Source of the DNA: a virus
IMG/VR virus record: IMGVR_UViG_3300019487_000017
Direction: 5' to 3' (one strand)
Length of the DNA stretch: 64,000 nt
Positions 14,874 to 63,801 of the stretch are shown here, one piece after another (position 1 is the stretch's first letter; each line of letters begins with the position of its first letter). A program made the position numbers and the translations under genes. The notes under the pieces are model-generated. The model did not search any database. It saw only the letters and a program-made list of their open reading frames with translations, and was not told the origin of the DNA.

Positions 14874-14945
14874 TCCAGGGTAGCTCAACGGTAGAGCGTT
14901 CGGCTGTTAACCGAATGGTTACAGGTTCGAATCCTGTCCCTGGAG
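14874..14945 (+). tRNA. tRNA-Asn(GTT)
   Basis: Cloverleaf; TTCGG-CTGTTAA-CCGAA. Confidence 0.95.
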
Positions 14946-14956
14946 CTGGGGAATAT

Positions 14957-15029
14957 GTGGATGTAGCTCAGTTGGTAGAGCGCCTGCCTGAAGAGCAGGG
15001 CGTCGTAGGTTCAAGTCCTATCATCCACA
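14957..15029 (+). tRNA. tRNA-Phe(GAA)
   Basis: Cloverleaf; CCTGC-CTGAAGA-GCAGG. Confidence 0.95.
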
Positions 15030-15233
15030 CTTATGCAGGTATTGGAAGAAGATTTTCGTGATAGATGTAAAGTTCTTCCAATAAAAGGTGTTTTTTATTG
15101 TTTAGGTATTAAGGTAGTTCGTTTAGGTAATAATAAGTGGCAGTCTGGTGATTGTAGGGGTAATTGGAAACAGGTTTATCAGGCTGTTATGTTGAAAATA
15201 AACGCTGTTCTTTGACAATTGAATATCATTTAT

Positions 15234-15308
15234 TCCAGGATAGTCATCAGGGTGATGGCGTTCGGCTGTTAACCGAAAATAAGGCTGGTTCGATCCCAGC
15301 TCCTGGAG
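15234..15308 (+). tRNA. tRNA-Asn(GTT), second copy
   Basis: TCCAGGA/TCCTGGA acceptor stem; TTCGG-CTGTTAA-CCGAA. Confidence 0.9.
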
Positions 15309-15309
15309 C

Positions 15310-15364
15310 TGACCTAATATAAATGGGCGTGAGCTGATTTCGGGTTCGACTCCCGTTCGGTCCA
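15310..15364 (+). pseudogene. Truncated tRNA-like element (T-arm and acceptor only)
   Basis: CGGG-TTCGACT-CCCG T-arm and GACC/GGTC ends; no D or anticodon arm. Confidence 0.45.
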
Positions 15365-15380
15365 TTTGATGAGATATAAT

Positions 15381-15461
15381 GTGGGCTGACCCAAGGTGAC
15401 GGGTTAAAGCGATGGTGAAGCACCGACAGGTGTAGTAGGGTTCGAATCCCACTGCGTCCAC
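15381..15461 (+). pseudogene. Atypical tRNA-like element, anticodon not assignable
   Basis: GTGGGC/GTCCAC ends; GGG-TTCGAAT-CCC T-arm. Confidence 0.45.
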
Positions 15462-15489
15462 TGAAGAACGCCTAAAATATATTGTAAAA

Positions 15490-15561
15490 GCCTCCGAAGC
15501 TTTAGCGGATGAGCAACTGGCTCTTAACCAGTGGAAGCCGGATCGTTACCGGACGGGGGCA
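15490..15561 (+). tRNA. tRNA-Lys(CTT), atypical T-loop
   Basis: ACTGG-CTCTTAA-CCAGT; T-loop ATCGTTA. Confidence 0.85.
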
Positions 15562-15613
15562 TAACTGACATGTGCTATAAAACCTTATATCTATAGATAT
15601 AGAGGTAAAGCAT

Positions 15614-16024
15614 ATGTTTGAATCTCATGTTAAAGGAGAATTAGCTCAATTGGAATTCCAAAAACGAGCATTAGAAAAAGGAATTATAGTTAGTCGTCCA
15701 ACAACAGAAAGCCGGTACGACTATATTATAGATGATAAGGGAGAACTATTACGGGCCCAGATAAAATATGCTGGTTCTACAACATCTAATAGTAATGGAT
15801 CAGTTTTAGTTAGATTAGAAAAAGAATGTCGAAGTAATGGGAAACGTAGGTGTTATTCTTCTGATGAAGTAGATGTATTATTTGTTTTTATACCGCAAAT
15901 AAATAAAATATGTCGTTTTGATACAATATTTTTTGTTGATAAATCTACATTAACTATTAGAATCGAAACGGCTAAAAATAGACAAACAAAGAATGTTTAT
16001 TTAGCTCAAGATTTTATATGGTAA
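15614..16024 (+). CDS. PD-(D/E)XK endonuclease (I-Ssp6803I-like homing type)
   Basis: KGELA, SRP, RYDYIID, RAQIK, Y...EVDVLFVF. Confidence 0.85.
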   Translation: MFESHVKGELAQLEFQKRALEKGIIVSRPTTESRYDYIIDDKGELLRAQIKYAGSTTSNSNGSVLVRLEKECRSNGKRRCYSSDEVDVLFVFIPQINKICRFDTIFFVDKSTLTIRIETAKNRQTKNVYLAQDFIW

Positions 16025-16030
16025 TATTGT

Positions 16031-16103
16031 GCCGGAGTAGCTCAGCTGGTAGAGCGCCGTATTTGTAATGCGGATGTCGTGGGTTCGATCCCCTCCTTCG
16101 GCT
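16031..16103 (+). tRNA. tRNA-Thr(TGT)
   Basis: Cloverleaf; CCGTA-TTTGTAA-TGCGG. Confidence 0.93.
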
Positions 16104-16546
16104 TTTAAAAATATGTTAGAAGATAAGACACTTAAAAATTTGCAAAATACATATGAAGAGCGTCAATGTCGTGTAGGTTCTGCTCCTGACTGGGAGTATG
16201 GTATAGTTGAGAAAGTTTATCAGGCAAGAAATAGAATTGATGGACTTTATAAATGTAAAGTAATAATGGATAATAATGTTATAAAGTACATAGACATTAA
16301 TGAGATTCATATTTTTTGAGGAATAAAAATGGTTAATCAATTGCCAATTAAGGTTCAGAAGTTGATTATTGGTTCAAGTGATTTGATGACTATAGCCTAT
16401 GGTAATAAGGTTTATTTTTATTTATCTAAGGAAAACAAACAGACAAGAACAAAGATTGAAGCGATAATGAAGACTCATGTACCTGATCGGGAGTATGAGA
16501 TTAAAGTAGTTGGTAAGATTGTTGCAAGTCCTGCAACATAGCATAT

Positions 16547-16617
16547 AGGTTGTTCGTATAGTGGCATTACCTTCGTCTCCAAAACGAAAGACAGGGGTTC
16601 GATTCCTCTACAACCTG
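16547..16617 (+). tRNA. tRNA-Trp(CCA)
   Basis: AGGTTGT/ACAACCT; TTCGT-CTCCAAA-ACGAA. Confidence 0.9.
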
Positions 16618-16630
16618 TTTCCTCCAGTAT

Positions 16631-16703
16631 AGAACGGTAGCTCAATTGGCAGAGCAGTTCCCCGATTAGGAACTTGTTGTAGGTTCAACTCCTATCCGTT
16701 CTA
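16631..16703 (+). tRNA. tRNA-Ile(GAT)-like with a non-canonical loop (C33, U37)
   Basis: GTTCC-CCGATTA-GGAAC; otherwise a normal cloverleaf. Confidence 0.8.
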
Positions 16704-16720
16704 CTTGAAAGGTAAGTCTT

Positions 16721-17026
16721 ATGAAAAAGATTGCTGGACCCCATACATCGTATGAGGCGAGACGATTAGATACTCCATCTGACCCAGAAAATTCTGGATG
16801 GCAATTGGTTGTTTTTGAGGCTGATTATAACAAAGAAGGGGGTAGAGAAGTATCTTATGATGCTTGTTTAGAAGCTGCTGTATTGGCAACTGATGGGAAG
16901 ATGACAAATGTAGTTATTGTGAAGGTAGAGGTTGAGTACTGTAAACCTTCAAAACAGGAAATTAGGGATTTGATAAAGAAACATAATGCAGACCCTTTTA
17001 CTAATCCTGTTAACATGGCAGAGTGA
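16721..17026 (+). CDS. Hypothetical protein within the tRNA array
   Basis: 101-aa ORF; 3' end overlaps tRNA(CAT). Confidence 0.6.
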   Translation: MKKIAGPHTSYEARRLDTPSDPENSGWQLVVFEADYNKEGGREVSYDACLEAAVLATDGKMTNVVIVKVEVEYCKPSKQEIRDLIKKHNADPFTNPVNMAE

Positions 17027-17089
17027 GTATTGGTTTCTCGGATACGTTTCATAAGCGTGTTTATGTCGGTTCGATTCCGACCTCTGCTA
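17017..17089 (+). tRNA. tRNA(CAT), Met or Ile2
   Basis: GGCAGAG/CTCTGCT; loop TTCATAA. Confidence 0.8.
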
Positions 17090-17405
17090 CTTTATTTGGA
17101 GAAAAAATATGCCTTGTAGTGGTCCATCAATTCCATACGATCAGGCTAAAGAAGCTTATGAGGATGTTTATAAGTATATGAAGGAAAAATATAAGCTTTT
17201 TAGTTCTGATGAGGTTTTAGATAAAATTTCTCCTGCTGGATTCAGGAAGAATTGTTTAGAACAACGAAATAAGGCTGAGGAAAAGTTGAGAGAGGCTGTT
17301 TTAGATTTGTTTACTTGTGATGCGTTTGAGTCATGGTAATTTTTTAGAAAGGAGATTAATCATGCGTTATAAACGTGTTAGCGTTGATGAAGATGATAAA
17401 CGCTA

Positions 17406-17478
17406 GATCCCGAAACCTTTAGTGGATGAGGCTCAGACTTTTAATCTGATTAAGTCGGATCGTTACCGAACGGGATCA
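17406..17478 (+). tRNA. tRNA-Lys(TTT), atypical T-loop
   Basis: TCAGA-CTTTTAA-TCTGA; T-loop ATCGTTA. Confidence 0.85.
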
Positions 17479-17486
17479 TTTTTTAA

Positions 17487-17559
17487 GGGTTCGTAACTCA
17501 ATTGGTAGAGTAACAGCCTTTTAAGCTGTGAGTTGCGGGTTCGAGTCCCGCCGGACCCA
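17487..17559 (+). tRNA. tRNA-Lys(TTT), canonical
   Basis: ACAGC-CTTTTAA-GCTGT. Confidence 0.95.
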
Positions 17560-18269
17560 TTATGAAAATTACTATTACAGCGAGAGAGATTTTGAACAAA
17601 GGTTCTTGGGACAAATTCTGTCATAAGTTTGGAATTAATGAATGGGCAATGAATGAAGGTCGTATGGATCCATCTGAAGAGTTTACAATGACTCTTGAGG
17701 ATGCTAGAGAGATAGGATTAATCAATGATTTATCTGGACCATCCAATTTTCGCAGCAATTAATTCCAGTAACGCAATAGCCTCTTCTCCAGAAGGACCAT
17801 TTATTTCTAACGATAAGGAATCGTTAGAGGGTGAGTTAGAATCGTGGAAATATGATGGTTGTACAGTTGAAGAGATTGTAATTACAAGGAAAAAAGATGC
17901 CAGCCATTCCATTGCGATTGATTAAGGCTGAAGACATCAGTTGCCTTAGTTTAATTTCTAAGGCGTATCCTTATACGAGTGGGCTGATTATTGCCCTCAG
18001 TAATGAAAAAGGAGAGTGTGTTAGATATTGGGATGGGGATATGTTTATGCTCTTTGGAAGTGAAACAAGAGCAGAGGATCCAAAAACATTAAGTTCAAAG
18101 ATGATACCTTTTCAGCTTAAGAAAGCAAAAGAGTACGCATCACAGATTATTGTTGATGAGAAAATAGTGGATTTAGCTTTTTGGCTTCATCCTGAGTTTG
18201 ATTATCAGGCGATAGATAAATATAAGAATTTAAGATATCTATTCCCTGGTTGTCCGAGACAGTAAATAT

Positions 18270-18342
18270 GGGCCTGTAGTGTAATTGGGAACACACTTGG
18301 TTTGCAACCAGGGATTGAGGATTCAAATTCCTCCAGTGTCCA
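18270..18342 (+). tRNA. tRNA-Ala(TGC) with a 1-nt bulge in the acceptor stem
   Basis: CTTGG-TTTGCAA-CCAGG; G3:U70 retained. Confidence 0.75.
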
Positions 18343-18723
18343 CTTTTGAGAGGATATAATGGCTGTCATAGATCCAAATATTTCTCCTATAGATTTAAAA
18401 ATCATGCAAAATCTTCATAAGGTTGTTCGTTTGCGAGAAGAGTGCCTGAAAGAGCAAACGAATCATTATGGAAACAAAGAGAAAATGTTAGAGTATCATA
18501 ATGTATGTGAACAATTGACATCGGAGCATGTAAAGTTATATACTTCTTTGTCTCCGTTGGGCAAGGATCAGTATGATTTATGGAAGGCATATGAATTACC
18601 TTTGCCTGAATTGAATAGGAAAGGTGTTCAGCGTCCTAAGTCAGTATATCAGCGGTTACATGAGACATTGTTGTCTGGTATACCGTTTGAGTGAAAGTGA
18701 GCGCTAGTAGCTCAGAGTATTTC

Positions 18724-18797
18724 GCGCCCGTAGCTTAGCCTGGTAAAGCACTATCCTGATAAGATAGGGATCACAGGTTCAAATCCTGTTGGGCGCA
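18724..18797 (+). tRNA. tRNA-Ile(GAT)
   Basis: CTATC-CTGATAA-GATAG. Confidence 0.93.
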
Positions 18798-18836
18798 TTA
18801 AAGGATAAAAGTGAATAGACTTCTGCTATGTAATAG

Positions 18837-19268
18837 TTGAGTTCTATTATAAATACTAAAGCAAAAGGCGATGTTTCGACGGCGGTTATTTTTGCTGCCT
18901 TAGTAAAAAACGGTTTTACGGTCTTAACTCCTTGGGGAGATAAGAATCGTTATGATTTAGTTGTAGATGATAACGGAAAATTTATTCGCATTCAGTGTAA
19001 AACTGGATGCTTAAATAATAAATGCATAAATTTTAGAACTTATTCATTGACAACGAAAAACGGCAAATCAGTAAAATCAAATTATACAGCGGAAGAAATT
19101 GATCTATTTATGGTTTATTGTCCAGAGATAGACAAAATCTATGTGATAAATCAATTTGAAGTACCAAATAATATTTGTATTCTACGGGTGTCATCGCCGA
19201 AGAATAACCAAAAGACGAATATCAAGATGGCATGTGACTTTGAATTTAATGGGCTTCTGTGTATATGA
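18837..19268 (+). CDS. PD-(D/E)XK endonuclease (I-Ssp6803I-like homing type)
   Basis: KGDVS, PWGDKNRYDLVVD, RIQCKT, Y...EIDLFMVYCP. Confidence 0.88.
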   Translation: MSSIINTKAKGDVSTAVIFAALVKNGFTVLTPWGDKNRYDLVVDDNGKFIRIQCKTGCLNNKCINFRTYSLTTKNGKSVKSNYTAEEIDLFMVYCPEIDKIYVINQFEVPNNICILRVSSPKNNQKTNIKMACDFEFNGLLCI

Positions 19269-19308
19269 CTAAAAATAAAAAATATGAGTGGTGAATTTTA
19301 AGTAATTC

Positions 19309-19381
19309 GGGGCTATAGCTCAATTGGGAGAGCAGCACCTTTGCAAGGTGAAGATTGCAGGTTCGATTCCTGTTAGCTCCA
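19309..19381 (+). tRNA. tRNA-Ala(TGC)
   Basis: GGGGCTA/TAGCTCC; loop TTTGCAA. Confidence 0.93.
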
Positions 19382-20291
19382 TTCTTCTCCAGAAGTTACT
19401 ATCCTTCCATAAGACAGTTTAATCTTATAGAACAATAAGGAAAATATATGCATAAGTTTATGATTCATTTTCAGAGCGCGGCTTATTCAAATGAATTATA
19501 TGATGTTTTTGGAAGAAACATATATTCGCTTGAGAAAGCAATTAAAACAGCGGAAGATATGTATGGGAGTAAGGGTTGGGAAGTATATAACGGAATTGAA
19601 AGCGAAAACAGGTTTAGGTAATGAACAATAAAACGATGATAATTTCAGATCAACAACTAATTGATAAGTTGGCAAATAAACATCAGGTTAACTTGCTAGG
19701 TGCGAATATTATTTGTACAGATGAGAAACCAATTGGAAATGGTATTTTTGGTTGTGCAAGATGCGAACTAATTAATTATTTCCAATTTCAAGAAGAAAGT
19801 GGAGATAATGCATCACCCTAATATTTTCGCAGCACTTTTTCAAGAGATAATTACACAATTATCTAAGGAAGAACAGAATACACTATATAACTTGTGTAAT
19901 TCAAATAATGTGACAGAAACCGAGTTGAACGTATTGCGAGGAAAGATTCAGGTTTTAGCCAATGGAACAACACTCACAATACAAGCAAGAAACTTTTTGT
20001 CTTTTTTATTGAATGGACTTCCTAAGACTCCTGAGAAGAAGTTGAGCATAGATATTGACATAAACCAACGTCCAATATAAGGTTGGTATTAAAATGGAAG
20101 AAGCAGAGGTTCTGAGTTAAGGTTGATATTGTTAGTACTCCTGATGATAAACCTCATTTGCAAGTTTCTTTGTGTACAGAGGGATATCCTTATCTTGTAC
20201 TGATAGAGTCTGATTCTATACTGTTGGATTTAATACAAAACGCCAAGATTATTATGTAGACGTTAAGGGATCGTAGCTCAACTGGATTAAC

Positions 20292-20363
20292 GCGAGCGTA
20301 GCTCAAAGGCGGAGCAAGGAACTCATAATTCCGGGGTTGTAGGTTCGAATCCTACCGTTCGCA
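20292..20363 (+). tRNA. tRNA(CAT), Met or Ile2
   Basis: GCGAGCG/CGTTCGC; loop CTCATAA. Confidence 0.88.
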
Positions 20364-20405
20364 TTAGAAACGACGATATTTAAATTCTTTATTATCTTCA
20401 ACTTC

Positions 20406-20481
20406 AGCATGACAATTTAAACAATGGTAGCATTCCCCCGCGTAGGCTGGGGGAGGTAAGAGTTCAAATCTCTTAATGTTT
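20406..20481 (+). pseudogene. Degenerate tRNA-like element
   Basis: AAGAG-TTCAAAT-CTCTT T-arm, CCCCC/GGGGG stem with an oversized loop, weak acceptor stem. Confidence 0.4.
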
Positions 20482-20493
20482 TTGTGGTTATAT

Positions 20494-20565
20494 GTCCCTG
20501 TAGGCTAACGGATAAACCCACTGCCTTCTAAGCAGTTTTTGCAGGTTCGAATCCTGCCAGGGACA
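20494..20565 (+). tRNA. tRNA-Arg(TCT)
   Basis: ACTGC-CTTCTAA-GCAGT. Confidence 0.95.
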
Positions 20566-20840
20566 CTTGAATAATTTTTCCCTCCTATAAGAAATTCATC
20601 TTTAAATTCAAAAATTCTCTTAAAAACTCTTGATTTCTATAAATATTGTGTTTTTAAGGGTTTAAGATACTAATCTTGTAGCTATAAAGATAGAAATGCG
20701 AAGATAGAAGATTAGAATTGTTGATTATCTCCAGAATTAAGATATCATTCTGTAGTAACTTCGTTGAAGCCAATCATATTCATTCGAATGTTCGAATGAG
20801 ATTAGGCTAAAAGGTATCCATACAATCAAAGGAAACTGTT

Positions 20841-21503
20841 ATGGATCGCAAAGGTACTGCAGTTCTCAATGTTGATGCTGTTGTCGCGGAATTCGCAAAT
20901 CGTTCAAAGCGTTTGCGAGAAATCGTGAAGCAGCAAGGTCTTTTGGCGAAGCAGCGGGCTCAAATCGAACAGCAGCAAAATCAGTTGTCGAATGAAGTTC
21001 AACGGCTGATGGGTACGGCTGAAGAGAATTCGACTATTGCTCCGCGTCGTCGCGGTCGTAAGCCTGGTCGCAAGCCCAAGGCTGAAAAGACTGCAAAGAA
21101 CGCTCGTAAGGCGAATGGTAACGGTGAAAAGACCGTTGCAAAGCGGAATGGTCGCGGTCGTAAGCCTTCCGGTGAAAGTCTTCGCGACGTTCTGTTGACG
21201 GTTCTCCCGTCTGCCTCTGAAGACCCAATTTCGAAGGATGAGATTGTTACTCGTCTGACGAAGAAGGGTTACAAGTCTACGGCGAAGGATCCGAAGGTGG
21301 TTATTGGTCAGGCGCTCGGCAAGCATCGGGATTTCTCGGTTGTTGAACGCGGCAAGTGGCGTTTGAGTGCCACTGGAGTCAAGAATCGGGATAAGATGGT
21401 TGCTCCTGCTACCACGGCTCCGGTTGCTGGCCCGACCCCTGCTCCTGTCGAGGCAGCTGCTGAAACTGCCTCTGCGGAAACGGCTGCAGCGGCTGCTGAG
21501 TAA
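20841..21503 (+). CDS. Basic nucleoid-associated-like protein (coiled coil, RGRKP repeats, probable winged helix, Ala-rich tail)
   Basis: RRGRKPGRKP, GRGRKP, C-terminal F-V-RGKWRL; own promoter-like sequence (TTGATT-N16-TATCAT at 20721) and a downstream hairpin. Confidence 0.65.
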   Translation: MDRKGTAVLNVDAVVAEFANRSKRLREIVKQQGLLAKQRAQIEQQQNQLSNEVQRLMGTAEENSTIAPRRRGRKPGRKPKAEKTAKNARKANGNGEKTVAKRNGRGRKPSGESLRDVLLTVLPSASEDPISKDEIVTRLTKKGYKSTAKDPKVVIGQALGKHRDFSVVERGKWRLSATGVKNRDKMVAPATTAPVAGPTPAPVEAAAETASAETAAAAAE

Positions 21504-21528
21504 GCAGTAAAGTTTAGATGTAGAAATA

Positions 21529-21569
21529 ATAAGTACAGCTATCTTCAATTGTGAGATAGCTGTACTTAT
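21529..21569 (+). terminator. Long hairpin / terminator
   Basis: TAAGTACAGCTATCT...AGATAGCTGTACTTA. Confidence 0.6.
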
Positions 21570-21577
21570 ATTCTTAC

Positions 21578-21650
21578 GCTTGCGTAGCCTAACGGATAAG
21601 GCATCACTTTCCTAAAGTGAGATATGGAGGTTCGAATCCTCCCGTGAGCA
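21578..21650 (+). tRNA. tRNA-Arg(CCT)
   Basis: TCACT-TTCCTAA-AGTGA. Confidence 0.93.
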
Positions 21651-21686
21651 TAATTTTACGATATTAGATTATTAACGGAGATATTT

Positions 21687-21824
21687 ATGTCATATATTTA
21701 TTCTGGTCCAGAACAAGAAGAAGATGATGAAGACTTTGAAGAAGACGAAGATGATTTTGATTGGGATGAGGATGACGACGATTGGGAAGATGACGAAGAT
21801 GATGACGAATTTGATGATGAGTAA
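21687..21824 (+). CDS. Very acidic 45-aa peptide
   Basis: GGAG RBS; MSYIYSGPEQEEDDEDFEEDEDD...DDE. Confidence 0.6.
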   Translation: MSYIYSGPEQEEDDEDFEEDEDDFDWDEDDDDWEDDEDDDEFDDE

Positions 21825-21832
21825 GTAAAAAC

Positions 21833-21936
21833 GCACCCCTAGCTCAATTGGTAGAGCAGCGGGCTTATACCCCGCCCCCGGAAACGGGAGTTCCCAGATT
21901 AGGAAACGGTTGTAGGTTCGAGTCCTACGGGGTGTA
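21833..21936 (+). tRNA. 104-nt tRNA-Ile-like gene with two anticodon-like arms (TAT and GAT)
   Basis: 7-bp acceptor, normal D and T arms; GCGGG-CTTATAC-CCCGC, CCCG-GAAA-CGGG, TTCC-CAGATTA-GGAA. Confidence 0.8.
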
Positions 21937-22401
21937 TTAAAAGGGATAAATATCTAATTTAAAAAGGAGATGTTTATGTCGGAATATTATTTTGCAGTTT
22001 TGCCACAGTTCCCTGGAACCCCAATTAAAGGTGGGAAAAGGGCTGCGAAGCAGCGTGATAAGATTGCGAAAAATATTGATCCCAAGGGGGATATACATAT
22101 TATTTTGATTCTGCTGAAAAACGTTGGCGTGGTTGGGGTTATTGTCTAAATCTTGGACATCCATTTGATAGAGCAACTGCTAAGGCTATTGAAGAAGCGT
22201 GGGAAGCTGCGGGTATATAATAATGAATAAAAAGGTAGTCTTGACAATTATTTGTAGTTTGGTAGGTATAGGACTACTTTTATTTCTAATATACATTTTA
22301 TTTGGGCAAAGTATATTGGGAATTGCTGCTTGTATCCTTGTAGGAATGTTTTTAGCGTTTGTATTGTATGTTTTGGCTAGTGGCATGGGTGAATAACTTT
22401 T

Positions 22402-22473
22402 GGGGATATAGATTAACGGGAAATCGTCTCAATGGCATTGAGAAAAGTAAGGGTTCGACTCCCTTTATCTCCA
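22402..22473 (+). tRNA. tRNA-Ala(GGC)
   Basis: TCTCA-ATGGCAT-TGAGA; G3:U70. Confidence 0.9.
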
Positions 22474-22834
22474 CTGAAAGAATATGTAGTAAGAATATAT
22501 GCCTGCAAATATAGATTTTGCATTAATAGAACGTTCACTTACACTATTTTCCACTGGACAATTTGATTCCCGTCAGGATGCATTAAAGGCTGCAATTGAA
22601 GAAAGAAAAAAAGAACAGCGTAAAAAGCAAGATAAAGAAATAGAAAAAAGACAGCAAGAAATTGATGATTGGGCTTAACACATCTAGAAGACTCTCCGGT
22701 ACTTAGAATTATTAACATAGCCTTTGAATAAGAGGCTATGTTATGAATAAAAAAGAAACAAAGACATTAGTACTCCCGTCTGGTTTATCATTAGATGAAA
22801 AAAGAGTGCTTTAAAGCTTCTTAGTTCACTTCCC

Positions 22835-23668
22835 ATGCGTTTCATAGATGATAAACGTTTACACACCAGTTTAGCGCACATAACACTATTTAAAGAGAAA
22901 TTGGATTTAAGTGATGCTGAGTTAGCTTGGCATAAGATGTTGGTTGTAGAAAATTCATATGATTCTGCGCCCAGAGTTTTACGCAAATCTGAAGAACAAA
23001 TTTTATTCTTGCAATTCAATTATGCGCGTTATGTTTGTTCAACAATTCAAACAAAAGCTCAAAAGAAAAAGCTTACTTTAAAAGAAGTTAGACACATAAT
23101 TTTATGGAGTCAAATTGTAGATAAGCTTAAAAGTAATATTGTGGTAGCTAATTTAGGTTTGATTTATAAGATGTTGAAATATACTGGATATTCTAATAGT
23201 CCAGACTTTGATAATTTAGTGACAGAAGGACAAATGTGTTTACTACGGTGCTTAGACACATTTGATGTTTCAAAGGGATTTAAATTCTCCACATATGTTT
23301 GTGGTTCATTACATAAGAGCTATAGGAGATATTCTCAAAGATTAAAATTCAGGCAAATAAAAGAAATATCTTATGATGGAGCTCTAGATATATTTGAGGA
23401 TCACAGAGCTTTTTCTGTGAAAGCTGATGAAAGATTAGAAAACGATGATATGTTTAAATATGTAAGGAAAGTTTTAAAAGATAATGATGCTGATTTGACT
23501 CCGGTAGAAAAGACCGTAGTGAAGCACCGTTATGGATTTTCACAGGATCCTAAAACTTTAGATGAAGTGGGTGATATAATTGGAGTAACTAAAGAAAGAG
23601 TGCGTCAAATACAGATTAAAGCACTTGGTAAATTAAAGAAGGCTATGGTGGCAACTGTTGAAGTGTGA
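22835..23668 (+). CDS. Sigma-70 family RNA polymerase sigma factor
   Basis: Region 2 ANLGLI...EG...FDVSKGFKFSTY; region 4 TLDEVG-IIGVTKERVRQIQIKALGKL. Confidence 0.92.
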   Translation: MRFIDDKRLHTSLAHITLFKEKLDLSDAELAWHKMLVVENSYDSAPRVLRKSEEQILFLQFNYARYVCSTIQTKAQKKKLTLKEVRHIILWSQIVDKLKSNIVVANLGLIYKMLKYTGYSNSPDFDNLVTEGQMCLLRCLDTFDVSKGFKFSTYVCGSLHKSYRRYSQRLKFRQIKEISYDGALDIFEDHRAFSVKADERLENDDMFKYVRKVLKDNDADLTPVEKTVVKHRYGFSQDPKTLDEVGDIIGVTKERVRQIQIKALGKLKKAMVATVEV

Positions 23669-28271: not shown

Positions 28272-29654
28272 ATGGCGGTCAAAGTAAAAGGTGATAAAGT
28301 TAAGGAACCAACAAAGGCGCAACTAGATACCGCAGTTGCAAAAGAACGCCTTATTTGTGTAGATGTTGATGATAACAACTGTAAGTTTTGGCACGGATTT
28401 GCCTTAGCAAATGGTGACGGTTTCTGCGAATGGGGAAGAGTTGATAAAACGCGACAACATGAATATTACAATTTTGGCAATGTAAGTGATGCTCAAAATT
28501 GGCTTGAAAGTAAAACCCAGGAAAAATTGAATAAGCGTGGTAAGGCTTCTTACACTCGACAGAAGACAATCGATAATACTGGAACTGTCAATCGTACTTC
28601 TGTTGGTGGCGGTTCTGTTCGCTCTTCTGATTTAAAGAATATTGCAGCGCAACAGATTAAGGGTGATAGCGAGACAACAAAGCTTGTAACTTGGCTTGCA
28701 GAAGTCAATGTACATCAAATTACTAAGAATACTCAAATTACATATAACGTTCAAACTGGATCATTCAGTACGCCATTAGGTTTAGTTACTCCTGATGGTA
28801 TTACTGAGGCTCGTGATATTCTGAATGGCATTTGCGATTATGTTCAGAATAGGGATTGGAATAACGCAAAATATAAGAAACTATTAAGTGATTATTTGCG
28901 TATTATTCCGCAGAACGTAGGTATGGTTCGAGGTTGGCATGAGACTATTTTTGCTCCTGCCGATTCCTTGCAAAAGCAGAATGATATTCTTGATTCGTTG
29001 TCGGCGTCTTTACAGGCACCGTCTACAGGAAAAAAGTCATCTGCTGGAAACGTAACGGAAAGCGTTTTCAACGTTTCTCTCGAAACCGTTTCAGATCCAG
29101 CAATTATTTCTCGCATTCGAGCAAAATACAACAGCGAAAAGGGAAGTCATTACGACGTAAAGGACTTCGATGTAAGGAAAGTTTGGACTGTTCATATTAC
29201 AACAGTCAGAAGTGCTTTCCAAGGTGACGGTATTAAGGTAGGCGGTATGATGCAACTTTGGCATGGAACAAAGGCATCTAATGTTTTGTCTATCTTAAAG
29301 GGAGGATTGGTTATTCCTCCTGCCAGTGCATCGCACGTTTGTGGACGTATGTTTGGTAATGGATTGTATTTCTCTGACCAATCGACTAAGAGCATTCGTT
29401 ATGCTACAGGCGCTTGGACAGGCGGTGGGAATACAGAACGAGTATTTATGTTTATTGCTGATGTTGCAATGGGCAAATACTATACGCCGCAAGGTTATCA
29501 GAGTGGTTCATTCCGCGTACCGTCTGGCTATGACTCCTGTTTTGCTAAAGGCGGTAAGTCTGGGGTACAGAATAACGAAATGATTGTTTATCGCGTATCT
29601 CAGGCAGATTTGACTTATTTGGTTGAATTTGGACGTAACAAGACTGGATGGTAA
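28272..29654 (+). CDS. WGR-domain PARP-family ADP-ribosyltransferase
   Basis: EWGRV (WGR), helical middle domain, LWHGT, SILKGGL, GRMFGNGLYF, KS-RY, NNEMIVY (H-Y-E triad). Confidence 0.92.
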   Translation: MAVKVKGDKVKEPTKAQLDTAVAKERLICVDVDDNNCKFWHGFALANGDGFCEWGRVDKTRQHEYYNFGNVSDAQNWLESKTQEKLNKRGKASYTRQKTIDNTGTVNRTSVGGGSVRSSDLKNIAAQQIKGDSETTKLVTWLAEVNVHQITKNTQITYNVQTGSFSTPLGLVTPDGITEARDILNGICDYVQNRDWNNAKYKKLLSDYLRIIPQNVGMVRGWHETIFAPADSLQKQNDILDSLSASLQAPSTGKKSSAGNVTESVFNVSLETVSDPAIISRIRAKYNSEKGSHYDVKDFDVRKVWTVHITTVRSAFQGDGIKVGGMMQLWHGTKASNVLSILKGGLVIPPASASHVCGRMFGNGLYFSDQSTKSIRYATGAWTGGGNTERVFMFIADVAMGKYYTPQGYQSGSFRVPSGYDSCFAKGGKSGVQNNEMIVYRVSQADLTYLVEFGRNKTGW

Positions 29655-39118: not shown

Positions 39119-39877
39119 ATGCGTAAGAGTAAGGGTTTTTCACTTGTAGAATTGCTTGTTGTGATGGGAATCATCTCATTGCTTATTTCCATCCTCCTGC
39201 CCAGTATTTCTCGATCACGAGAATCAGCACGATCCGTTAAGTGCCTGAGTAACCTGCGACAAATTGGACAGGCAACTCAGATGTACTTGCATGAAAATAA
39301 GGGTAGTTTCTTCCTTCGAGCGTTGAATGATGGTCCCAATCCTGATGATAATTATGCAACACTATTCAGGTTTGTTGGGTCTCCAGGTGAAAATCCTTAT
39401 AATGGTAACGCAAACCCTTATAAGTTCGGGGGTAACAAACGATATCTTAACCAGTATTTGAATACCAGCGATACTAACGATCAGGCTGTTTGGATTTGTC
39501 CTACTGACCCTGGTTTGTATAAGTTTACTGGTACATCATATGGTGCCAATCTTTTTGTCAAGAAGACTGCCACTGAACCTGATGTTAAAGGTCTTGCCTT
39601 AGATGATTTGCAGTCTATTAAAGTGACACAAATTAAGAACTCTTCGTCGTTTGTAGTTGCTGCTGAACATGGCGCTAATCAGCTTGCTTGGCTTAATGGT
39701 GGTAGTACGAATGAGCTGGGTAAGATTTCTGGGGTTCAGGTATTAACTCCCGCTGCTATGTTTTGGCACTCTAAGAGTCGTACATGGAATGTGCTTTTTG
39801 CAGATGGTCATTGTGGTGCTGTCGATATTAAAGCAAGCACTTTGTCAACATCTGAATATACTTATAACCGAGAATAA
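39119..39877 (+). CDS. Prepilin-type N-terminal cleavage/methylation protein, DUF1559-type with an H-X(n)-DG C-terminal motif
   Basis: KGFSLVELLVVMGIISLLISILLPS...RESAR-VKC-SNLRQIG, WICP-D, SYG-N, H...NVLFADGH. Confidence 0.92.
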   Translation: MRKSKGFSLVELLVVMGIISLLISILLPSISRSRESARSVKCLSNLRQIGQATQMYLHENKGSFFLRALNDGPNPDDNYATLFRFVGSPGENPYNGNANPYKFGGNKRYLNQYLNTSDTNDQAVWICPTDPGLYKFTGTSYGANLFVKKTATEPDVKGLALDDLQSIKVTQIKNSSSFVVAAEHGANQLAWLNGGSTNELGKISGVQVLTPAAMFWHSKSRTWNVLFADGHCGAVDIKASTLSTSEYTYNRE

Positions 39878-51416: not shown

Positions 51417-51576
51417 GCCCCTGTAGCTCAGCGGACTAGAGCGTTCACAAGCTTCAGATATGCTTTTTTGTAGTTGGAAGCGCTTCTTGCTACAAAATAG
51501 ATAGTTTCTAGGGCTATCTAAAATAGTGTTAATGAATCTAAGTGAAAGGTCGTTGGTTCGAATCCTTCCAGGGGCT
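51417..51576 (+). tRNA. tRNA-Arg(TCT)-like gene interrupted by a ~85-nt insertion in the anticodon loop
   Basis: GCCCCTG/CAGGGGC acceptor, D-arm with A20, TTCAC...TCTAA-GTGAA, T-loop TTCGAAT. Confidence 0.7.
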
Positions 51577-52596: not shown

Positions 52597-52690
52597 GGAG
52601 CGGTACGCAAATTGGAAAAGCGGACTATATAGCGATATACTAGTTAAGTTGTTATATAGTTGTTTGCAAGTTCGACTCCTGCCCGCTCCG
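52597..52690 (+). ncRNA. tRNA-like RNA whose anticodon arm is a 13-bp hairpin
   Basis: GGAGCGG/CCGCTCC acceptor, D-arm, TTCGACT T-loop; ACTATATAGCGAT/GTTGTTATATAGT stem. Confidence 0.7.
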
Positions 52691-63063: not shown

Positions 63064-63801
63064 TTATAGTTCTAAGTCTCCTACAACAAGATTTTTCGTA
63101 CTATTCCAGTCTTTGTCTAATTTGTTTCGTTCTTCAGAAGAGAATTGGTTTGCCTGGTTTTTGAAGTATTCTTGGATTAGTTGATCTTTAATGGGTACAG
63201 AGCAATTAAATTTTTTGCGTGTTAGTTCCCACGGTGTACCAGGTTCATGAGACATATTCGATAATTGAATTGCTGTATAATCTGACAAGACATCCCATAC
63301 TCTATCAACAATCGCTTTTGATTGAATAAATTCATTAAATGTTGTAAAATCTTTGGGTTGACAATGCATGGATGGAATATATGTATTTACTACTTTTTCA
63401 GTAATCTCTTCATTTCCGTAGGGTTTTAGTGCATGATAAAGTGATGGTATAACGGGACCAAAATCCCAAGCTTCCACACATTCATTAATAAGGGGTCTTT
63501 TAGTAACTGCAAGATGCCAACCATGAGCATAATAAACAAGTCTATGCAGTTTCATGGGGGTAAGAGGTTTGTTTTGAGATATACTCAAAACTATTAAATA
63601 GTTTGCTACAGCGGTAGCTTCAAATTTTTCATATGGTGGTATTTTTATCATTTGTTTTAATGTAGATTTTTCTGATACGAGTATATCGTATTGTCTACGT
63701 AGCATAATAACTTTTATTCCTTCATTATGTAGCTGCACTGCTAGATATATTATGAATACAATACAGAAAACGATGATTGATAAGAGTATGATTGTTAACA
63801 T
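63064..63801 (-). CDS. Panacea-domain (DUF4065/SocA/GepA) antitoxin-like protein with an N-terminal TM segment
   Basis: VANYL, LTPMKLHRLVYYAHGW, EAWDFGPVIP-LY, LS-MSH---PW. Confidence 0.85.
   Translation of the reverse strand: MLTIILLSIIVFCIVFIIYLAVQLHNEGIKVIMLRRQYDILVSEKSTLKQMIKIPPYEKFEATAVANYLIVLSISQNKPLTPMKLHRLVYYAHGWHLAVTKRPLINECVEAWDFGPVIPSLYHALKPYGNEEITEKVVNTYIPSMHCQPKDFTTFNEFIQSKAIVDRVWDVLSDYTAIQLSNMSHEPGTPWELTRKKFNCSVPIKDQLIQEYFKNQANQFSSEERNKLDKDWNSTKNLVVGDLEL

Follow-up and report, generated by a model that had tools for sequence, protein, structure and literature searches.

For synthetases that read the anticodon, the textbook tRNA is an adaptor in which one triplet serves both identity and decoding. 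Class II tRNAs carry a long variable arm, which is joined to the T arm by 1 to 2 nt, and have no class-I G46 core. The tRNA-Ile(UAU) genes of archaea and of viruses of eukaryotes with an intron at 37/38 form a known class, and the tRNA-like structures of plant viruses use an anticodon-like loop for charging and not for decoding. Single-arm tRNA-Ile(UAU) is described as tRNA-Ile2 of Mycoplasma mobile (PMC3575796) and as "Ile3(UAU)" in Bifidobacterium, Mycoplasma, and Neorickettsia (PMC8450103). UAU tRNAs are mentioned in both PMC8450103 and PMC11571807, none of them with a second arm in the portions of these articles available. Two reports with similar wording are unrelated: the accessible part of PMC10228390 ("two anticodon arms", chloroplast tRNA-Ser) concerns a predicted refolding, and that of PMC10583094 an engineered double anticodon within one loop. 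No description of a two-arm tRNA-Ile(UAU/GAU) was found in the full-text literature searched, the coverage of which excludes most subscription journals and bioRxiv supplements.

The gene described herein belongs to a viral stretch of 64,000 nucleotides (IMG/VR record IMGVR_UViG_3300019487_000017), which as a whole is called the window. Going from 5' to 3', a D arm, a UAU arm, a GAAA hairpin, a GAU arm, and a T arm follow each other (Table 1), and the sequence confirms this layout as given in the original prediction. The branch is of the 7/5 type. Its earlier separation from the 8/4 or 9/3 allo-tRNAs was right, since 7/5 goes together with A73 both here and in the family. A26 stands between the D stem and the UAU arm, and A73 is located at 21936. 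The UAU arm is closed with five of five pairs, meaning that the insert does not split the anticodon arm after position 37, and it is separated from the T arm by 36 nt with two hairpins. The Rfam tRNA model (RF00005) matches the gene with 58.8 bits (gathering threshold 29) over exactly 21833 to 21936; ARAGORN misses it. The fold has a z value of -3.35, with 1 of 200 shuffles being equally good. The minimum free energy structure of the single sequence contains all six helices but shifts the register of the GAU arm, leaving it a loop of 6 nt; a loop of 7 nt is used here because family comparison, and not this single-sequence structure, gives it. One DNA run contains the stretch in one contig, with no variant and no joint that deletes the insert; this run may be the window's own source. 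The middle GNRA hairpin of the window copy is likely a spacer.

Table 1 Features of the three-arm tRNA gene, its sibling, and the surrounding tRNA array (positions refer to the window).
Feature	Position	Strand	Description
Whole three-arm tRNA-Ile(UAU/GAU) gene	21833..21936	+	104 nt up to discriminator A73; CCA not encoded; matched by Rfam and family model R1
Acceptor stem, 5' strand	21833..21839	+	pairs with 21929-21935; G1.U72, C4-G69
D arm	21842..21857	+	4 bp (21842-45/21854-57); 8-nt D loop; A15 at 21847 matches U48 at 21911
First anticodon arm	21859..21875	+	5 bp; loop CTTATAC; UAU at 21866-21868; U33 and A37; putative decoding arm
Middle hairpin with GNRA (GAAA) loop	21877..21888	+	optional in family; from fold
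Second anticodon-like arm	21891..21905	+	4 bp; loop CAGATTA; GAU at 21897-21899; A33, U37; putative IleRS identity arm
Class-I-type connector	21906..21911	+	6 nt; equivalents of 43-48; G45, G46, U48
T arm	21912..21928	+	5 bp; from sequence and fold
Single-arm sibling	16631..16703	+	loop CCGATTA (C33, U37)
Ordinary tRNA-Ile(GAU)	18724..18797	+	loop CTGATAA; in same array as three-arm gene
tRNA array	14874..22474	+	17 ARAGORN tRNA calls, Rfam-only 17017-17089, and three-arm gene

The gene belongs to a family. Among 215 candidates from phages, plasmids, and bacteria, 198 are distinct UAU+GAU genes with a paired second arm, most of the scans behind these totals having required GA or GAT. The remaining 17 comprise four GAC and one GAA variants, two genes with GAT on an imperfect stem, two with unrelated long arms, and eight misparsed or non-family sequences. 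The constancy of the triplet is better seen in a scan for tRNA genes with UAU and a long region ahead of the T arm, in which GAT was not required and which covered 120 loci among ~670 estimated stretches of viral contigs and 120 among ~530 of GTDB. The matches listed contain 101 viral and 113 GTDB distinct genes, of which 75 and 68 are of the 37/38-intron type and 25 and 45 have a closed UAU arm, with one unclassified. Six closed-UAU genes were set aside as genes of ordinary length, the pattern having extended in them to a T loop further downstream. GAT is found in the long region of 22/23 viral and 37/41 GTDB closed-UAU genes (59/64 among the matches listed; the GTDB count includes L265 from the unpublished genome G010), and of the five genes without it, three have GAC loops and two have unrelated arms. 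The original prediction had named homologs lacking the second GAT loop as evidence against it; the loop is conserved, even where the search left it free. In the reverse scan, GAT had to stand at its canonical spacing from the T arm, and the first anticodon was left free (120 of ~200 loci listed); 57 of its 91 distinct matches have both arms paired, and UAU is the first anticodon in 57/57 among the matches listed. When neither a D arm nor the third base was required, a loose scan of 4 of the 64 parts into which the viral collection is divided yielded, among 120 loci listed, 47 tRNA-like genes; every one has GAT and A73, and one has a mismatched stem.

Throughout the family the branch is 7/5, and A73 is present in 196/198 genes. 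Quite a different body, with a tetraloop D arm, underlies 32 of the 47 loose-scan genes; in this subfamily (L457, L464, L478, and 29 more), a single base links the D arm to the acceptor stem, and the anticodon stem is longer. Since it was found with only 4/64 parts of the collection scanned, it is possibly the commonest form. The GAAA/GNRA hairpin is optional and absent from most members: six three-arm genes were found (the window gene, L061, L197, L247, L294, and L925), and a scan for this form gave nine tRNA-like genes in the 120 loci listed, only two of them three-armed. A metagenome scan with a mis-spaced pattern, which excluded two-arm forms, gave 19 matches, seemingly due to chance. Among the carrier genomes are those of Actinomyces, Xanthomonas, Pseudoxanthomonas, Stenotrophomonas, Blastocatellia, Nitrospirales, Obscuribacterales, and Planctomycetota. 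The genes often lie inside tRNA arrays and occur also on Xanthomonas plasmids and in cultured phages, namely Vibrio phage Thalassa and, unannotated, Pectobacterium phage Arno162 and the E. coli phages ESCO41 and ETEP102. Annotation tools hide the family, ARAGORN missing the window copy and labelling other copies plain Ile(TAT) or Ile(GAT). Second loops with GAC (a valine anticodon) or GAA occur in L098, L334, L357, L962, and L454; these could be products of decay or could load another amino acid at AUA. In Acidobacteriota arrays, the two-arm gene adjoins a second long-armed tRNA-like gene (L264:5097-5187 and L277:5095-5185, minus), the first loop of which is degenerate and the extra region of which contains CAT. 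The three-arm gene of L925 has a single-arm tRNA-Ile(UAU) as its neighbor (111-186), and tRNA-Ile(UAU) with a 37/38 intron is found in many Woesearchaeota, Micrarchaeota, and Pacearchaeota genomes (GTDB loci such as L244, L252, and L257).

From 97 members, 43 diverse two-arm genes with <88% identity were drawn for alignment, and RNAalifold returned the five-helix structure from them unprompted. Compensatory changes occur in all variable helices. In the second arm, double changes are found in 4/4 pairs, in 36 cells compared with 7.3 in shuffles, which ignore kinship, and with at most 12 in slid controls; as pairing of this arm was a selection criterion, its percentage of paired positions is not independent. 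Covariation in both arms, the check proposed along with the original prediction, is thus present across the family alignment. The family model R1, built from this alignment, ranks the three-arm gene, absent from its training set, first in the window with 78 bits versus 61. G1.U72 is found in 50/97 members, positions 15 and 48 are complementary in 95/97, and G46 is present in 89/97. The connector after the second arm measures 5 to 6 nt in 97/97 and, to judge from the sequences, behaves as a class-I variable loop. Hence, between positions 26 and 44, two arms take the place of the one anticodon arm of an ordinary tRNA. The D stem continues into the UAU arm, and the GAU arm runs on into the connector; measured from the D stem, UAU has canonical spacing, and the spacing of GAU from the T stem is canonical or differs by one base.

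The two loops are unequal. Where it was not required, U33 is found in 57/58 UAU loops and a purine at position 37 in 58/58. The GAU loops (n = 198) have A33 in 153 and U33 in 33 cases, A38 in 172, and at position 37 A in 106, U in 71, C in 11, and G in 10, meaning a pyrimidine in 82/198. The single-arm GAU genes of the same loci (n = 76, counted after removal of five partial two-arm matches) show U33 in 66, C33 in 10, and A33 in none. Only the UAU loop keeps the U33 and the purine 37 that a decoding loop needs, and the GAU loop would fit a recognition loop.

We consider it rather probable that the GAU arm serves charging by IleRS and the UAU arm decoding of AUA, the RNA toggling between the two, with neither lysidine nor TilS needed. 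In this mechanism, two covarying arms with coupled UAU and GAU triplets are carried on a class-I tRNA body with A73, and either arm could stack under the D stem, so that the RNA would toggle between a charging and a decoding shape. With the GAU arm stacked, the isoleucyl-tRNA synthetase of the host would read GAU and load Ile; once the arms swap, the ribosome would read AUA via UAU. A phage would thereby be supplied with AUA decoding independently of the TilS or the scarce tRNA-Ile2 of its host, and in Actinomyces the two-arm tRNA, which co-occurs with loss of tilS and of the third CAU tRNA, would be the working AUA decoder. The original prediction had already suggested decoding for one arm and identity for the other, and it is partly supported, with the GAT loop kept, both arms covarying, and tilS apparently replaced in Actinomyces; the splicing that it offered as an alternative finds no support.

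A subfamily provides the best evidence for the toggle, as far as sequences can suggest one. The 5' D strand of some members can pair with either of two partners, one ahead of each arm, and each partner is followed by one base and a 5-bp arm. Both partners are perfect in L312, L316, L356, and L456, the two folds of which differ by ~3 kcal/mol and two of which ARAGORN labels Ile(GAT). A scan that required the AGC of the second partner gave 47 distinct genes in the 120 loci listed; the pairing of the second partner is better in 36 and equal in 11, and the second loop has A33 in 47/47. Five genes from another scan, the pattern of which did not require it, show a compensatory 12:23 change in both registers together, probably from one event. 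A conformational switch, which the original prediction had listed as an alternative, gains support from this 47-member subfamily, but the window copy stands outside it. In the main family, a second D partner in the canonical register reaches four pairs in only 2/97 members, so that the toggle of the main family, window copy included, rests on topology.

According to the part of PMC3575796 available, IleRS of E. coli charges UAU poorly and is rescued by exchange of Trp905 to Arg, hence the need for a second arm with an IleRS of this type. Two of the carriers are phages of E. coli (ESCO41 and ETEP102), and IleRS1 of 5/5 cellular carriers has Trp in the motif matched to R888-C889-W890; as Trp is the norm at this site, its presence lends weak support. 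Actinomyces IleRS is devoid of the C-terminal motif that holds the wobble-contact site. Hosts of the genus Lactobacillus have Arg there (PMC3575796, available part), and of four Lactobacillus phages, two have second loops drifted to GAA and GAC, which fits a relaxed need for GAU in a tiny sample. Several points count against the split of functions. The second loop usually has A33 and often U37, as does that of the window copy, which has neither the U33 nor the A37 that IleRS may use: reading of U36 by S. aureus IleRS1 involves the tRNA's own U33 (bioRxiv 10.64898/2026.02.03.703510, accessible part), and the portion of PMC9976931 available ranks t6A37 among the strong determinants for IleRS of the bacterial type, although a later sentence says the contrary. 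The GAC and GAA second loops and the two long arms without GAT weigh in the same direction. As single-arm tRNA-Ile(UAU) genes are common (L319, L331, L344, L350, L577, L973, and L974), a second arm is no general need. In addition, the gene is redundant in most cellular carriers outside Actinomyces, since 37/39 of them keep TilS and 4/4 Xanthomonadales keep three CAU types.

Actinomyces is different in this respect. Among 45 carrier genomes (including G010; two of the 45 carry GAC variants), all six Actinomyces have no TilS match over the cut-off, whereas 37 of the 39 others have one. In 251 genomes of the Actinomycetaceae, the family of G018, a TilS match was found in 209 and none in 42, 22 of the latter identified by subtraction. 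A pattern for any tRNA with UAU, short or long, gave 40 matches in these 251 genomes, namely 37 two-arm genes and three non-tRNA sequences. All 37 carriers are TilS-negative, and 0/209 TilS-positive genomes carry the gene. With CAU gene types assigned by sequence motifs, the five TilS-negative noncarriers have three CAU tRNA matches in three cases, two in one, and one in one fragmented genome. Each of three carriers has two CAU tRNAs compared with three in each of two controls. The tilS gene is missing beside hpt in 3/3 carriers and present there in G123, and the two-arm gene lies near tRNA-Leu(UAA) in 8/8 Actinomyces regions. A pattern scan across the order (301 genomes) gave only the seven known Actinomyces carriers and two single-arm UAU genes, both in TilS-positive genomes. 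The two-arm gene thus appears to replace tilS and the third CAU tRNA in Actinomyces and, in genomes of this genus without tilS, is the only candidate AUA reader found. As the genes are near-identical, the association with tilS probably reflects one replacement event.

The codon itself is rare in Actinomyces but not depleted relative to AUU: ATA makes up 31 of 92,215 codons, in 27/243 predicted genes, with an ATA:ATT ratio of 0.25 versus 0.23 and 0.14. Distant relatives offered no ATA site in ~10,400 aligned codons, and hence closer genomes were used. Here, 20 aligned ATA sites of tilS-less genomes match Ile in ten, Val in five, Met in three, Thr in one, Leu in one, and Ser in no case; Met at 3/20 compares with 2% for ATC/ATT. 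The Actinomyces association suggests that the design is likely sufficient for AUA decoding and, taken by itself, does not show that the GAU arm drives charging.

Alternatively, the UAU arm could both decode and set identity, leaving the GAU arm as an anticodon-nuclease decoy, a T-box specifier ligand, or a dock for a modifying enzyme. Such a role would suit the predominance of phages, plasmids, and tRNA arrays among the carriers, the deviation of the second loop from U33/A37, and the survival of an insert-free GAU/U37 form alongside normal Ile tRNAs (in the window, L577, and L578). It is nevertheless unlikely, because the exact Ile triplet is conserved across many phyla and three D-arm types with UAU as the first anticodon in 57/57, because the gene is fixed in Actinomyces chromosomes with loss of tilS, and because a decoy needs no restriction to UAU tRNAs. 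That both arms decode, one reading AUA and the other AUU/AUC, is decidedly improbable. The second loop of Actinomyces is the canonical CTGATAA, and the GAU arm of the two-register subfamily sits in a fully canonical position, but A33 is found in 153/198 second loops and in 47/47 of that subfamily, and position 37 is a pyrimidine in 82/198. A normal tRNA-Ile(GAU) is moreover kept in 5/5 Actinomyces tested and in the window.

The window contains a relative of the three-arm gene in which the UAU arm and hairpin are absent. Removal of the 31 nt at 21859-21889 was said in the original prediction to leave a body like 16631-16703, and this is borne out: identity is 56/73, with 15/17 in the arm, making it the closest tRNA of the window. 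The runner-up among the 15 window tRNAs compared reaches 47/73 and 9/17. The 5' acceptor strands of the sibling and the three-arm gene share only 2/7 positions; the stems of the sibling still pair despite the changed acceptor. Its loop reappears as the second loop of L547 and L556. The insert-free U37 form was found only in the window, L577, and L578, each time with a normal Ile(GAU) gene beside it; a tight scan for the sibling pattern gave one match, judged to be chance. The sibling likely derives from a two-arm gene via loss of the UAU arm and, given its intact pairing, may persist as an RNA that is charged but decodes poorly.

This pair raises the question whether the long form is a precursor from which one arm is excised like an intron, yielding an ordinary tRNA of which the sibling would be a copy. 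The 73-nt body near the sibling and the AG found on both flanks of the insert would fit, as would the fact that intron-type tRNA-Ile(UAU) genes are the majority of listed matches in both scans for UAU genes with a long region. Known introns, however, interrupt the anticodon arm at 37/38, and here the arm is closed. Removal of the UAU arm would leave a poor, redundant decoder, would not explain U33/A37 in the removed loop, and would deprive Actinomyces of its only candidate AUA reader; removal of the GAU arm would leave the invariant GAU unexplained. No ligase or splicing nuclease family was found among the 95 window proteins scanned, the window being only part of a genome. Splicing is thus very unlikely and, with each arm conserved as a functional loop and the insert-free form rare, is not supported as the alternative originally offered. 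The sibling is real but rare, with two other cases, and does not show splicing.

As a further possibility, the long arm could be a class II identity element, with charging with Ser or Leu and mistranslation or reassignment of AUA as in allo-tRNAs. A73 fits Leu as well as Ile. UAU is, in the available part of PMC5389517, a predominant allo-tRNA anticodon. With the 7/5 branch, A73 in 196/198, and a class-I core with G46 and the 15:48 pair, with ATA sites of tilS-less genomes aligned to Ile and Val (Ser none, Leu 1/20), and with a GAU loop that SerRS and LeuRS would not select, this reading is extremely unlikely. Equally hard to credit is that the gene is nonfunctional, left over from a tandem duplication or a fusion and spread by mobile elements, for although two-register forms resemble a duplication of positions 22-43 and copies serve mobile arrays, all variable helices show compensatory changes, the triplets are invariant on very different bodies, and 37 tilS-less genomes retain the gene.

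In its short unknown ORFs and its tRNA array (14.9-22.5 kb), the window resembles a portion of a large phage or similar element. ATA accounts for 118/491 Ile codons in 30 window ORFs, and the element thus uses AUA heavily. Proteins of the window include a sigma-70 factor (22835-23668), a PARP-domain protein (28272-29654), a DUF1559 pilin-like protein (39119-39877), which we take to hint at a Planctomycetota host, a weak match to ribosomal L7/L12 (53828-54187), and a Panacea antitoxin domain (63064-63801). Two PD-(D/E)XK endonuclease genes (15614-16024 and 18837-19268) lie within the tRNA array, each adjoining tRNA genes, and a 45-codon ORF of nearly all Asp/Glu (21687-21824) stops eight bases upstream of the three-arm gene. 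Two CAU tRNA genes are located at 17017-17089, which is odd and missed by ARAGORN, and at 20292-20363, the connector and T arm of which have 20/22 bases in common with the three-arm gene. A tRNA-shaped gene at 51417-51576 (Rfam 38.6 bits, fold z -3.85) has ~95 nt with two internal hairpins in place of the anticodon loop, and may contain an intron or be a tRNA-like RNA. A tRNA-like gene with a long AT-rich anticodon region (52597-52690) is matched only by model R1 with 26 bits, and two tRNA-like pieces with T arms and acceptor-like ends lie inside a doubtful permuted-tmRNA call of ARAGORN (15317-15461).

The two-arm family is real and conserved and was not found in print; its mechanism we infer. 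The architecture is a variant of tRNA, and the toggle, if proven, would be a new mechanism. We lean, though only slightly, toward a natural switchable adaptor that would swap the arm stacked under its D stem between synthetase and ribosome. If true, it would be a third bacterial solution for AUA that is essential in Actinomyces and can travel from host to host with phages and plasmids, and it would offer a ready-made scaffold for codon reassignment, giving a codon an amino acid without a change in the synthetase. A division of identity and decoding over two arms would, if true, be unexpected to experts on tRNA structure and the genetic code; next to lysidine/agmatidine and adaptation of the synthetase, it would be a further answer to the AUA problem, which has long been studied. 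With unannotated copies in cultured E. coli phages and a cultured bacterial genus that appears dependent on the gene, it is directly testable.

The tRNA-like structures of plant viruses are not free tRNAs, and a second anticodon for decoding is absent from them. The 37/38-intron tRNA-Ile(UAU) genes are also UAU genes longer than 76 nt, but their intron splits the anticodon stem-loop, whereas in the two-arm family this stem is closed and the extra sequence is conserved. As in class II tRNAs (Ser, Leu, and Tyr), an extra helix that can serve identity lies between the anticodon and T arms (PMC7609411, available part); unlike in these, the extra arm has seven nucleotides in its loop, among them the invariant cognate triplet, and a full class-I connector (5 to 6 nt) comes after it. 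UAU, a long extra arm, the occurrence in phages and Acidobacteria, and, in one subfamily, a tetraloop D arm are shared with allo-tRNA(UAU), as far as the accessible parts of PMC5389517 and PMC7609411 describe it. Those parts give allo-tRNAs as 8/4 or 9/3, mostly with G73/U73 and with Ser or Ala identity, whereas the two-arm family is 7/5 with A73. The window gene differs from the tetraloop form by its 8-nt D loop, and CAGATTA had no match in the supplement of PMC5389517. With single-arm tRNA-Ile(UAU), the family shares UAU in a 7-nt loop with U33 and a purine 37, a class-I body, and the link to loss of tilS in some lineages; unlike it, the window gene has a second GAU arm and no short variable loop. 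The synthetase of M. mobile is changed (Arg865) to accept U34 on its one-arm tRNA, whereas IleRS1 of the five carriers keeps Trp (PMC3575796, available part, for M. mobile). The same problem, reading AUA with Ile charging, is met by tRNA-Ile2(CAU) with the lysidine of TilS (PMC3575796, available part). There, one modified base switches identity and decoding; in the two-arm tRNA, two loops likely divide them, with no TilS.
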